Sequence record: PQ571293
DNA from: Escherichia phage EM1
Length of the DNA stretch: 44,223 nucleotides
Strand: one strand, 5' to 3'
In this document: piece by piece, positions 31,453 to 37,385 of the stretch
Position numbering within the stretch: position 1 is the first letter of the stretch
Layout of the letters: each line of letters opens with the position of its first letter
Position numbers and translations under genes: made by a program
The notes under the pieces: model-generated
The model's database searches: none
Seen by the model: the letters and a program-made list of their open reading frames with translations, nothing else
What the model was told of the DNA's origin: nothing

Positions 31453-32873
31453 TTCTTACCTCGTCTCTTCATGTAATTAAGCAATTCTTCCTGGACAGAT
31501 TTCTTCTCGTCCGTACGCGCGGCGACAACCTCGTCAAGCGTGTCTTTGGCAACGATATGATAGAGGAACACCGGGCGTTCGTGGCCAGCCTGTTTCTGGC
31601 GAACTGGGCCTATACGCTCCACAACCTGCAAATAGTGCTCAAGGTTCCAGCCTTGTGAGATGAACGCCAGATGATGGCCGCCGTCTTGTAAATTCAAACC
31701 ATGGCCGGCTGATGCAGGGTGTACACATAAGATTTCGATTTCCCCACGGTTCCACGCTTCCATCTGCTTATTGCCCTTAGCACCTTTGGCAAACGCCTGC
31801 GCCTGTGGAAAACGCTTAAGGATGCGCTCCAGTTCATGCTTGAACTGATAGGCGACCAGCAACGGTGCACCCTGTAACTCCTCCACAATCGACTCAAGCG
31901 CATCCAGTTTCGTGTCGTGCACTTTCTCCCAGTCTTTCGTTGCTTCACCGTCTGGCCCTGACACATACACGGCGCCGGATGCAATCTGCAAACATTTCGA
32001 CGTCTTCGCCGCGGCGTTAGCCGCTTCAACTTCTCCGCTCTCCAGTTCCGCGAACAACTTCTCCTCCATATCGATGTACGCCTGACGGGCTTTCTTAGGC
32101 AGGTCGATTTCAACCGGTACTATAATCGGATCTTCACATCCGAACCACTCGGCGGCGTCAATCGTGAGACTAATGTCCTTCATCTTCTGGTGAATTTCAT
32201 TATCCGCACCCGGGCGCGCATGATACTCACGCGCCATCGCGGATTTGCCTTTCTGTACTGAGTTAAACCATCGGTCGGTGAATGCTGTGTATGAAGAACC
32301 GAGGCGCTCACCAGCGTCGATAAACCAGTTCTGGCCCCACAAGTCTTTGAGGCCGTTTGGGGATGGTGTGCCAGTCAGGTTAATGAAACGCTTAACCCTA
32401 CCGAATGCCACTTTGCTTAGCGCCTTGGCCCTCTTGCTCCCTCCAGAACGGCTGCGAAAAGACTTCAGCTTCGTGCTCTCATCAGCAACGATAACCGTAA
32501 AAGGCCAGTCGTCTTTGCCGTAGTAGTCAATCAGCCACTCGATAACTTCGTAGTTTGTGCACACCACGTTAGCATCTGACTCCAGCGCCGCGATACGGCG
32601 CTTCTCTGAACCGGTTGCGTCTACGACACTCAGACAGGGGAAGTTCCAACGTGCCTGTTCCGCGGGCCACGTACCTGACGCAACACGTAAAGGAGCCAGA
32701 ATTAACACTCGGTCGTCGTCATTAAGTTGCCCATTACGGAACAGTCGATTGAGAACCCACAACGTTGACCCGGACTTGCCGCTGCCCATGCTCGCCCAAA
32801 TATTACAGCGAGGGTGGCGCAACATGAACGAAGTCATGAGCTTTTGGTACTCCCTGCGGGTAAATTTAGCCAT
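31449..32873 (-). CDS. SNF2-family DNA helicase
   Basis: Walker A GSGKSGST and DExx box VIVADEST, helicase-sized (474 aa). Confidence 0.75.
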   Translation of the reverse strand: MAKFTRREYQKLMTSFMLRHPRCNIWASMGSGKSGSTLWVLNRLFRNGQLNDDDRVLILAPLRVASGTWPAEQARWNFPCLSVVDATGSEKRRIAALESDANVVCTNYEVIEWLIDYYGKDDWPFTVIVADESTKLKSFRSRSGGSKRAKALSKVAFGRVKRFINLTGTPSPNGLKDLWGQNWFIDAGERLGSSYTAFTDRWFNSVQKGKSAMAREYHARPGADNEIHQKMKDISLTIDAAEWFGCEDPIIVPVEIDLPKKARQAYIDMEEKLFAELESGEVEAANAAAKTSKCLQIASGAVYVSGPDGEATKDWEKVHDTKLDALESIVEELQGAPLLVAYQFKHELERILKRFPQAQAFAKGAKGNKQMEAWNRGEIEILCVHPASAGHGLNLQDGGHHLAFISQGWNLEHYLQVVERIGPVRQKQAGHERPVFLYHIVAKDTLDEVVAARTDEKKSVQEELLNYMKRRGKK

Positions 32874-33363
32874 TATTAACCCCGTGGTTGGTATGGAAAC
32901 CGTATTCTATTTCTGCGGCTTTACGTACCGACAATGCCTCTTCGAACGTCTTAAACCTGCCTAGTTCCATAAGTATTGTTTTTACACGTATTCGCGCCCG
33001 CCAAATACCTTCTTTTCTCAAAAATTCCACACCAGTTGCGCCAGTCTTATTACATGTGTACAAGCTCTTGTTCTGCATGTTTTGTTGCGTTGTAACCTTA
33101 CGTATGTTGTCCCATCTGTTGTTAGTTTTGTCATGGTCTATGTGGTCTATTTCGTCGTCCGGCCCTAATAAATCATCAGGGTGTAACGTATCCCACGCTA
33201 AACGATGCGCCTGATACATCTTTCCGTCTATTTTTATCCTGACGTAGCCGTTGCTTTTACTGCCGCCCGCTACGGAGCCAGCGGAACGACCTCGCGGGGC
33301 AACCACCCATGTGAAAACCCCGGTGTCCGGGTTATAGTCCAGTCTGCCATCAAAGCATTTCAT
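32866..33363 (-). CDS. HNH homing endonuclease with AP2-like DNA-binding domain (paralog 1)
   Basis: N-terminal YNPDTGVFTW, HNH core HRLAW...IDHIDHDKTNNRWDNIR, C-terminal AP2-like segment; ATGA overlap with flanking gene. Confidence 0.75.
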   Translation of the reverse strand: MKCFDGRLDYNPDTGVFTWVVAPRGRSAGSVAGGSKSNGYVRIKIDGKMYQAHRLAWDTLHPDDLLGPDDEIDHIDHDKTNNRWDNIRKVTTQQNMQNKSLYTCNKTGATGVEFLRKEGIWRARIRVKTILMELGRFKTFEEALSVRKAAEIEYGFHTNHGVNNG

Positions 33364-36919: not shown

Positions 36920-37385
36920 GGCAATAAAATTCCTTATGCAGTTTTTCTCTTAATTTCTTTACAGCGCTTTCTGCTTCTTCAAGAGTTCCGTAGCTACCAG
37001 CGTTATAACTTTTGTAGTTAAAATGTACCCGCCCATAAAATCGGTTGCCGTTTTTAACTACTCCCTTAACTCCCGTTCTCGCTCCCTTATTTTTAGCGTT
37101 TCGCACATTATCTGCGATGGTTGCTTTCCTTAGGTTAGAAATCCTATTGTCTAACCTGTCACGGTTTATGTGGTCAAGAGGTCCCTCGGGCCATTCACCG
37201 TACTCGAAAAACCAAGCAAGCCTGTGGGCCATGTAGTATCTACCCATATAAGGTATGCGCCAGTATCCGCTACTATTAATACATCCTGCAATGTCTCCGG
37301 GTTTCCCTCGTCTGTACGTAGGTTGTATCCATGTGAATATTCCGGTTTCTCGGTTATAGCTAAGAAAATCTTTTATATGTTCCAT
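36912..37385 (-). CDS. HNH homing endonuclease with AP2-like DNA-binding domain (paralog 3)
   Basis: internal ATG with GGAG RBS just after terminator; N-terminal HIKDFLSYNRETGIFTW, HNH core HRLAWF...LDHINRDRLDNRISNLR, C-terminal TGVKGV... Confidence 0.8.
   Translation of the reverse strand: MEHIKDFLSYNRETGIFTWIQPTYRRGKPGDIAGCINSSGYWRIPYMGRYYMAHRLAWFFEYGEWPEGPLDHINRDRLDNRISNLRKATIADNVRNAKNKGARTGVKGVVKNGNRFYGRVHFNYKSYNAGSYGTLEEAESAVKKLREKLHKEFYCHD

Follow-up and report, generated by a model that had tools for sequence, protein, structure and literature searches.

Three HNH-AP2 genes, candidate free-standing homing endonucleases, at intergenic junctions of the replication module of Escherichia phage EM1

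The window analysed here is the whole 44,223-nucleotide (nt) stretch of Escherichia phage EM1 in record PQ571293. Three genes on its minus strand, designated HNH1 (32866..33363), HNH2 (33859..34356) and HNH3 (36912..37385), encode proteins of 165, 165 and 157 amino acids (aa) that combine an HNH_3 nuclease domain with a C-terminal AP2 domain (AP2-like in HNH3), and they are the candidate homing endonuclease genes (HEGs) of this study. A first-pass annotation made from the sequence alone had listed three open reading frames (ORFs) of about 160 aa here; their coordinates and minus-strand orientation were confirmed, with lengths of 157–165 aa. The module around them reads, along the minus strand, DUF2800/PD-(D/E)XK exonuclease, Enc34-type single-stranded DNA-binding protein (SSB), family A DNA polymerase, small ORFs, VRR-NUC-like nuclease, a 63-aa ORF (ORF63) and SNF2 helicase. 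HNH1 lies between ORF63 and the helicase (slot A), HNH2 between a 67-aa ORF (ORF67) and the VRR-NUC-like gene (slot B), and HNH3 between the hairpin behind the SSB gene and the polymerase (slot C). All three are intergenic ORFs of their own, outside any intron or intein, and overlap their neighbours by 4–11 nt.

The three proteins matched Pfam HNH_3 (PF13392) with scores of 39.3 (E = 5e-10), 46.7 (E = 2.4e-12) and 56.4 bits (E = 2.2e-15) for HNH1, HNH2 and HNH3, respectively, all above the gathering cut-off of 24.8 bits. They also matched PHROG 99 ("HNH endonuclease") with E values of 1e-58 to 1e-65. A hidden Markov model (HMM) of the family, searched against the six-frame translation of the 44,223 nt, found exactly these three members and no fourth. 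The shared motifs by which the first-pass annotation had grouped the genes fit HNH2 and HNH3 well (DFLSY.., DNR..NLR and GVKGV) and HNH1 only loosely (RLDYNPDTGVFTW, NNR..NIR and GATGV).

Scanning of single C-terminal segments with Pfam AP2 (PF00847) gave a match for HNH2 only, at E = 0.012 and 16.3 bits against a cut-off of 33.3, and none for HNH1 and HNH3; phmmer of HNH2 against PDB sequences returned only a spurious match. A homologue search with HNH2 retrieved 797 sequences, many of them with precomputed PF00847 and PF13392 assignments, and a 77-sequence alignment of homologues served as the family profile (A2). Fifty-nine of the 77 full-length homologues matched Pfam AP2 at E ≤ 0.001, which indicates that the missing single-sequence match is a limit of sensitivity. 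Profile A2 matched I-HmuI in the PDB (1U3E, E = 2.4e-7) over positions 30–109, and the AP2/ERF proteins WRI1 (E = 9.4e-7) and TEM1 (E = 5.3e-4) over positions ~94–158. A C-terminal profile built without the EM1 proteins scored 41.5 (HNH1), 93.3 (HNH2) and 48.5 bits (HNH3). AlphaFold (AF2) models of HNH2 and HNH1, with pLDDT values of 95.6 and 89.2, had 1U3E as their top Foldseek match (E = 8.9e-3 with probability 1.00 and E = 3.3e-4, respectively), followed by AP2 domains (7ET5 and 1GCC in the case of HNH2), and 1GCC aligned to the two models with an rmsd of 1.2–1.6 Å over 48–49 columns. The modelled AP2 region consists of strands 114–117, 122–129 and 132–139 and a helix at 142–160. The AP2-like segment proposed in the first pass is thus borne out by the family profile, by the homologues, by fold comparison (HNH1 and HNH2) and by the C-terminal profile (all three), and each protein is shown to be an I-HmuI-like beta-beta-alpha-metal nuclease joined to an AP2 DNA-binding fold.

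All three proteins carry the Asp–His pair and an Asn 12 positions after the His (D73, H74 and N86 in HNH1; D75, H76 and N88 in HNH2; D71, H72 and N84 in HNH3), and these columns are invariant in the 77 homologues. Further conserved residues are N98 in HNH1, N100 in HNH2 and N96 in HNH3. In I-HmuI, D74 and H75 act as metal ligand and general base and Asn96 is the second metal ligand, in the numbering of the I-HmuI structure (Asp74, His75 and Asn96). The roles of the I-HmuI residues, including Asn87, have been described, with the metal bound by an asparagine together with an acidic residue that the paper gives as glutamate (PMC2816704). The +21 column, which corresponds to Asn96 of I-HmuI, holds Asn in HNH1 (N95), in HNH3 (N93) and in 72 of the 77 sequences, and Gln in the remaining 5. 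HNH2 has Gln97 at this column, shared with its four closest relatives including SETP3 gp37; it is followed by N98, and the invariant N100 lies three residues on. The change to Gln97 is conserved under purifying selection. From the alignment, we regard Gln97 as a caveat for HNH2 that brings no obvious inactivation. The catalytic His and Asn residues that the first-pass reading presupposed are in place except at this column of HNH2.

Each gene carries the start codon of a downstream essential gene in its last codons. HNH1 overlaps the SNF2-family helicase (31449..32873; Pfam SNF2-rel_dom and Helicase_C) by 8 nt (ATGGCTAA, 32866..32873), HNH2 overlaps the VRR-NUC-like nuclease (33582..33869; Pfam VRR_NUC E = 0.0011, under the family cut-off) by 11 nt (ATGGCGACTAA, 33859..33869), and HNH3 overlaps the intein-free family A DNA polymerase (34751..36919; Pfam DNA_pol_A) by 8 nt (ATGACTAG, 36912..36919), all on the minus strand. 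The VRR-NUC-like gene is named Holliday junction resolvase or VRR-NUC in the records of relatives. On the upstream side, the starts of HNH1 and HNH2 overlap by 4 nt (ATGA) the stops of ORF63 (33360..33551, minus strand; PHROG 4879) and ORF67 (34353..34556, minus strand; PHROG 25645), respectively, both of unknown function. The few-nucleotide overlaps reported in the first pass therefore stand, as does its placing of HNH3 between polymerase and SSB; HNH1 and HNH2 border ORF63 and ORF67 and not the larger genes that had been named.

The SSB gene (37440..38066, minus strand; Pfam PF10991, E = 6.6e-16) lies upstream of HNH3, and the stretch between them (37391..37420, minus strand) contains an SSB-distal hairpin at 37401–37420 with a U run (37398–37420 in total), followed by the HNH3 Shine–Dalgarno sequence GGAG at 37391–37394, five nt 5' of the ATG at 37385. 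One of the three genes had been said to follow a terminator with its own ribosome-binding site, and this description fits HNH3. The hairpin (AAGGCCC-UUCAUU-GGGCCUU) was found by reading and folding the sequence, with a 61-nt stretch folding at −17.7 kcal/mol (z = −2.65); a consensus terminator scan did not list it because only three U follow the stem. The 44 bp at 37396–37439, which include the hairpin, are 97.7% identical in relatives without HNH3. A start of HNH3 at TTG 37409, giving 165 aa, was rejected, since it lies inside the hairpin, ATG 37385 has the GGAG, and public gene calls give the same 157-aa product.

Pairwise identity among HNH1, HNH2 and HNH3 is 32–44%, and closer matches lie in other phages, with HNH2 72% identical to the protein P0003 and HNH3 68% identical to P0088. 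Duplication within the genome was rejected on the same figures (32–44% mutual identity vs 68–72% to proteins of other phages). Because mutual identity is this low and the proteins of other phages are closer, the three genes are independent acquisitions, paralogous only at the level of the family; the earlier term "paralogous" holds in that sense and not for in-genome duplicates.

The distribution of the genes was examined in six GenBank relatives and about 50 IMG/VR loci fetched with VRR-NUC as probe, giving a census of 53 non-redundant related loci. Megablast of 31449–38066 against GenBank phages matched 455 phage records, nearly all Guernseyvirinae, with identities of ~88–92% for Kagunavirus of E. 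coli and 80–90% for Salmonella phages such as the Jerseyvirus SETP3; GenBank counts below refer to these roughly 455 records sharing the module. By this comparison EM1 is a Kagunavirus-like siphophage. Insertion-free alleles, which the first pass had proposed to look for by alignment to relatives, are common. Slot A was assessable in 48 loci and was empty in 15, held HNH1 in 3, two other HNH-AP2 lineages in 6, a C5-methylase in 13 and a 227-aa protein in 11. Slot B, assessable in all 53, was empty in 6 and held HNH2 in 4, a deleted HNH2 remnant in 1 and another HNH-AP2 gene in 1, together with various small ORFs, among them ORF67, itself an accessory cassette of this slot found in about 10 of the 53 loci. 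Slot C was empty in 22 of 38 assessable loci, with HNH3 in 5 and small ORFs in 11; HNH3 is also present by alignment in L054, where the slot was not automatically scorable. A further junction between VRR-NUC and ORF63 (slot D), which in EM1 is an empty 30-nt spacer (33552–33581), was empty in 45 of 53 loci, held ORFs of 84–97 aa in 8 and held none of the EM1 HEGs. EM1 is the sole locus of the 53 with three HNH-AP2 genes, and 38 have none at all. Among the GenBank records, 5 have a full-length HNH1, 54 a full-length HNH2 and 5 a full-length HNH3. HNH1 is 97.2–97.6% identical in fEg-Eco19 and SE-W109/W112, and HNH2 is 94–99% identical across its 54 records. HNH2 is missing from K1H, fBC-Eco01, fEg-Eco19 and SE-W112, and HNH3 from K1H-type and L016-type alleles.

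Comparison of occupied and empty alleles located the junctions to the base. The empty slot A alleles lack ~491 nt of HNH1 and read ..GAAATGAGTAAGTTT.. (stop/start overlap) or ..GATTGAACATGTCTAAATTT.., with ATGAGTAA.. or ATGTCTAA.. at the helicase junction; the ATGA type is seen in L041/SETP3 (GGTGCTGAAATGAGTAAGTTTCAAAGGCGCGAG), and KMB36 has the type with a 5-nt spacer. The HNH1-bearing allele reads ..GAAATGA[AATGC...491 nt...TAATATGGC]TAAATTT... Its upstream flank is that of the ATGA-type empty allele, HNH1 adopts the old ATGA, and the new ATG of the helicase lies inside ATGGCTAA. In the empty slot B of fEg-Eco19 and SE-W112 a small Cys-rich ORF runs directly into VRR-NUC (fEg-Eco19 GAGGGGTGCATAGATGAGTACGCCTGAGGG; K1H ATGACTAAAGAG), and the HNH2-bearing allele reads ..TTATGAAAGC...CAACCATGGCGACTAAAGAG. 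At slot C the empty allele consists of the SSB hairpin, ACTAAGGGTCGAAAATAAT and the polymerase ATG, and the HNH3-bearing allele of the hairpin followed by ACCGGAGTCAGAATG...TGCCATGACTAGTTTA. A cognate empty allele for HNH3, of the same polymerase 5' allele class (ATGCCTAATTTATTATACCTGGATAC against ATGACTAGTTTATTATACCTGGATAC), was found in L016, L021, L028 and L034; its junction in L016 is CTAAGGGTCGAAAATAATATGCCTAATTTATTATACC, and polymerase codons 2–3 differ between it and EM1 (ATGCCTAAT).

Slot A has other occupants in many relatives. In K1H (L002 2914–3746) and 23 other loci it holds either a C5-cytosine methylase (PF00145; 13 loci) or the 227-aa protein (11 loci), the latter with methylase-like FDGSG, PPC and ENP motifs. 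These cassettes sit at the HNH1 site, and therefore anti-restriction cargo and HEGs compete for one junction. A different HNH-AP2 gene, in a 490-nt cassette of cluster cl18, occupies the slot in L011, L016, L049 and others; it has Gly-His in place of the catalytic Asp-His and begins with MSKF.., like the helicase downstream. One possibility is an HEG, inactivated or altered, that has taken over 5' codons of the helicase.

Divergence of the genes was compared with that of the DNA around them. HNH1 differs from its copies in fEg-Eco19 and SE-W112 at 2.4–2.8% of positions, and the flanking 1.9 kb at 12.3–12.5% (p ~1e-12). For HNH2 the differences are 1.2% vs 8.2% in the flanks with KMB36 (p = 8e-8) and 5.4% vs 14.1% with SETP3 (p = 4e-6), and for HNH3 they are 4.2% vs 8.3% (p = 0.002). 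HNH1 and HNH2 are thus about 2–7 times less diverged than their flanks, Salmonella phages included, and in sliding windows the identity peak covers HNH1 and 100–250 bp per side. The figures point to a clear signal of horizontal spread for HNH1 and HNH2 and a weak one for HNH3. Ratios of nonsynonymous to synonymous substitution (dN/dS) against orthologues were 0.10–0.27 for HNH1, 0.13–0.15 for HNH2 and 0.01–0.04 for HNH3, values that show purifying selection on all three genes. Decay of the EM1 copies into pseudogenes was rejected on the intact ORFs and the same dN/dS values (0.01–0.27). A decayed copy was found elsewhere: slot B of L045 (IMGVR_UViG_2595698426_000001, ~6367–6498) contains an HNH2-like remnant made of the first ~100 nt and the last ~20 nt. 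The remnant is an in-frame 43-aa ORF that still begins at the ATGA junction and still overlaps the start of VRR-NUC (..AACCATGGCAACTAA..), which suggests that the junctions are constrained even after loss of the nuclease.

The same gene neighbours recur in distant phages whose polymerase is only 62–69% identical in protein sequence to that of EM1. P0003 and P0006 (72% and 62% identical to HNH2) are encoded directly upstream of a VRR-NUC homologue, and P0088 is encoded directly upstream of the polymerase gene and overlaps its start. In Salmonella phage Shemara (Cornellvirus, L091 2251–2742), a third genus, an HNH1-lineage gene with 62% identity lies upstream of the helicase. Its first ~90 residues are ~80% identical to HNH1 and its AP2 part ~45%, a contrast that may reflect more rapid evolution of the DNA-recognition module in the Shemara gene, or its exchange.

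Identity between EM1 (31092–38158) and KMB36 (L001) changes in steps: 84% in the helicase, 95% from ORF63 through VRR-NUC to HNH2, 75% in the small ORFs and the polymerase 3' part, and 92% from the polymerase 5' part through HNH3 to SSB. Each step falls at a cassette slot or at the intein site of the polymerase, and thus mobile-element sites coincide with the boundaries of recombination blocks. The polymerase gene is ~0.9 kb longer in 12 of 51 loci (3.1-kb versions), including KMB36, fEg-Eco19, SE-W112 and SETP3, and alignments of the longer polymerases to that of EM1 break at 35584/35706. Inserts of intein size are present in these 12 of 51 polymerases and in five helicases of the related loci, and 5' and 3' allele classes of the polymerase assort independently among loci around the ~35584–35706 break.

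A few other features of the module were recorded. Further small ORFs lie between ORF67 and the polymerase. A 226-bp segment at 38159–38384, between the exonuclease and SSB genes, is present in fBC-Eco01 and missing from KMB36, K1H, fEg-Eco19 and others, and forms a further variable slot; the product of an ORF there (38150–38416, minus strand) is hydrophobic, at most 88 aa long and without a match in PHROG. A strong sigma-70-like match, TTGACA-17-TATAGT, lies at 38153–38125. Promoter-like hexamers at 33613–33585 and 38153–38125 are hints only, their frequency being not above that in shuffled sequence.

We interpret HNH1, HNH2 and HNH3, with a probability of about 0.8, as three independent free-standing HNH-AP2 HEGs at three intergenic junctions of the Guernseyvirinae replication module, and the genes are real and probably mobile. 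The proposal that free-standing homing endonucleases have invaded this module, already made in the first pass, is supported by the domain architecture, by presence and absence at fixed sites, and by the excess conservation of HNH1 and HNH2. When a carrier phage and a relative lacking the gene infect the same cell, the enzyme would bind through its AP2 domain to the empty junction, or to the 5' end of the gene beside it, and would nick it, in the manner of I-HmuI and I-BasI, or cut it. Recombinational repair templated by the carrier's genome would then copy the gene together with a few hundred bp of flank (co-conversion). The carrier would be immune, the insertion splitting the site and altering the first codons of the downstream gene. 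Translation of HNH1 and HNH2 would be coupled to that of the ORFs upstream, and helicase, VRR-NUC and polymerase would in turn be coupled to the HEGs upstream of them. The neighbouring genes are plausible targets, judging from the anatomy of the junctions.

Several observations weigh against the homing interpretation. No empty slot A allele sampled shares the helicase 5' sequence, the first ~25 nt being different. Gln97 of HNH2 replaces the metal-binding Asn of 72/77 homologues and of I-HmuI. HNH3 tracks its flanks, being only about twofold less diverged, and occurs together with a single polymerase 5' allele class; plain vertical descent with loss could account for this. A literature search on these proteins and their close homologues found no cleavage, target-site or homing data, and one on HNH genes of Kagunavirus and Jerseyvirus found only genome descriptions with passing mention. 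In addition, the slots also carry nuclease-free cassettes (C5-methylases, the 227-aa protein and small ORFs), and therefore cassette polymorphism can arise without an endonuclease; variation in slot content is by itself no proof that nucleases drive the mobility. The junctions might accordingly be general hot spots at which small genes are swapped by homologous recombination, with the HNH genes as mere cargo, their nuclease having ceased to drive the spread or never having done so. Such exchange would accommodate the C5-methylase (PF00145), the 227-aa protein and the ORFs of 43–97 aa in slots A–D, the EM1/KMB36 identity blocks that switch exactly at the slots whatever their content, and an HNH3 that diverges almost in step with its flanks. 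We nevertheless consider it unlikely. Purifying selection has preserved the catalytic residues, and HNH1 and HNH2 have diverged less than the DNA beside them, even between phages of different host genera. Each HEG lineage is also found next to the same gene in phages whose polymerase is only 62–69% identical, and slot A has received three different HNH-AP2 lineages.

The genes could also have been domesticated, as marker-exclusion weapons or as AP2 DNA-binding regulators, especially HNH2 with its Asn-to-Gln change. There is precedent in the phage-encoded repressors called CasPRs, which are AP2 domains without nuclease activity (bioRxiv 10.64898/2026.02.23.707548), Gln97 is kept throughout the HNH2 clade, and the dN/dS of HNH3 (0.01–0.04 at dS up to 0.5) suggests long retention. 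Against this, the genes are sporadic, with 38 of 53 related loci lacking any HNH-AP2 gene in the slots, a deleted remnant exists (L045), and none of the three proteins has lost the Asp-His pair or Asn+12; moreover, competition by cutting the DNA of rivals belongs to ordinary HEG biology and needs no separate mechanism. Domestication therefore appears quite improbable. A role as a packaging-associated HNH protein that assists terminase at cos sites, like the zinc-ribbon HNH protein HK97 gp74, shares with the EM1 genes the HNH superfamily only. That terminase-adjacent class is described in PMC3592412. The EM1 genes are part of the replication module and run opposite to the structural genes, belong to the I-HmuI-like HNH_3 and AP2 family as opposed to the CxxC zinc-ribbon class, and are missing from most relatives, which package normally; this role was rejected on position, family and distribution, and its probability is negligible.

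Under the homing interpretation, the three genes may form an "HEG island", in which each element is hard to remove, as it supplies the start codon of an essential replication gene and is coupled to it; we put this forward tentatively and doubt it more than we believe it. If it is true, the junctions would be the main seams for shuffling alleles of helicase, VRR-NUC, polymerase and SSB among Kagunavirus, Jerseyvirus and Cornellvirus across host genera, and methylases and small ORFs would be swept along as non-nuclease cargo of the HEG-island junctions. The elements explain much of the variation in gene content and the mosaicism of the replication module in Guernseyvirinae, phages that find use in therapy and in synthetic biology. 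In phage cocktails, the three genes could cut co-infecting relatives. The base-precise candidate target sites for three HNH-AP2 enzymes also make these possible rare-cutting nickases or nucleases, although the practical value is modest.

Among known systems, the nuclease part is closest to the intron-encoded I-HmuI and I-BasI of the Bacillus phages SPO1 and Bastille, which home through a site-specific nick (PMC3017599). In common with them, the EM1 proteins have N-terminal beta-hairpins, a beta-beta-alpha-metal core of the HNH_3 type, the Asp-His pair with Asn+12 and, in HNH1 and HNH3 only, Asn+21, and both groups are encoded next to or inside phage replication genes; 1U3E is the best PDB match both by sequence profile (E 2.4e-7) and by fold. 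In contrast, I-HmuI sits in a group I intron of the DNA polymerase gene and has a NUMOD/helix-turn-helix DNA-binding tail, whereas the EM1 genes are free-standing, carry an AP2 domain and, in HNH2, have Gln at the Asn96 column. HNH-AP2 proteins form a recognised HEG family, and "HEG islands", in which HEGs flank essential genes, are described together with nuclease-marked boundaries of exchange in ICP1-like and other phages (PMC10448857; Barth, Dunham and Seed 2023, citing the original HNH-AP2 description as ref. 45). The EM1 arrangement matches these descriptions. Like the "IPA-HNH" HEGs of vibriophage ICP1, the EM1 genes have an N-terminal HNH and a C-terminal AP2 domain and stand free beside essential genes; in both cases several of them bracket a core operon, mark boundaries of genetic exchange and turn over at the same site. 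The ICP1 domains are too divergent for Pfam HNH_3, whereas the EM1 proteins score well above its cut-off, and the EM1 case concerns Guernseyvirinae siphophages whose slots also host methylases.

The free-standing HEGs of T4-like phages (Seg with GIY-YIG, Mob with HNH) are likewise intergenic between conserved genes and present or absent among relatives, and co-conversion of flanking markers is expected for both groups. Their DNA-binding modules differ from AP2 (Mob has a zinc finger) and Seg has a GIY-YIG nuclease. For the T4 HEGs cleavage and marker exclusion have been demonstrated; the EM1 genes are known from sequence. The nearest counterparts are the GenBank orthologues in vB-Eco-KMB36 (WQN07572/WQN07576), SE-W112 (WEM34189), SETP3 (gp37, YP_001110809) and fBC-Eco01 (UMO77118), which lie at the same positions with 94–99% nucleotide identity and are annotated as "HNH endonuclease" or "HNH homing endonuclease". 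The exact HNH1 protein was not in a 15-billion-protein collection. In papers on these phage groups, homing endonucleases and inteins appear as mobile elements but are not themselves the subject of study. The EM1 genes are therefore an ordinary, known kind of selfish element, already annotated in this phage group, and a further example of HEGs bracketing essential phage genes. Unlike EM1, none of KMB36, SE-W112, SETP3 and fBC-Eco01 carries all three genes, and the present comparison adds to their annotation a base-precise slot map, candidate target sites, evidence for independent acquisition and for spread across genera, and the Asn-to-Gln peculiarity of HNH2.

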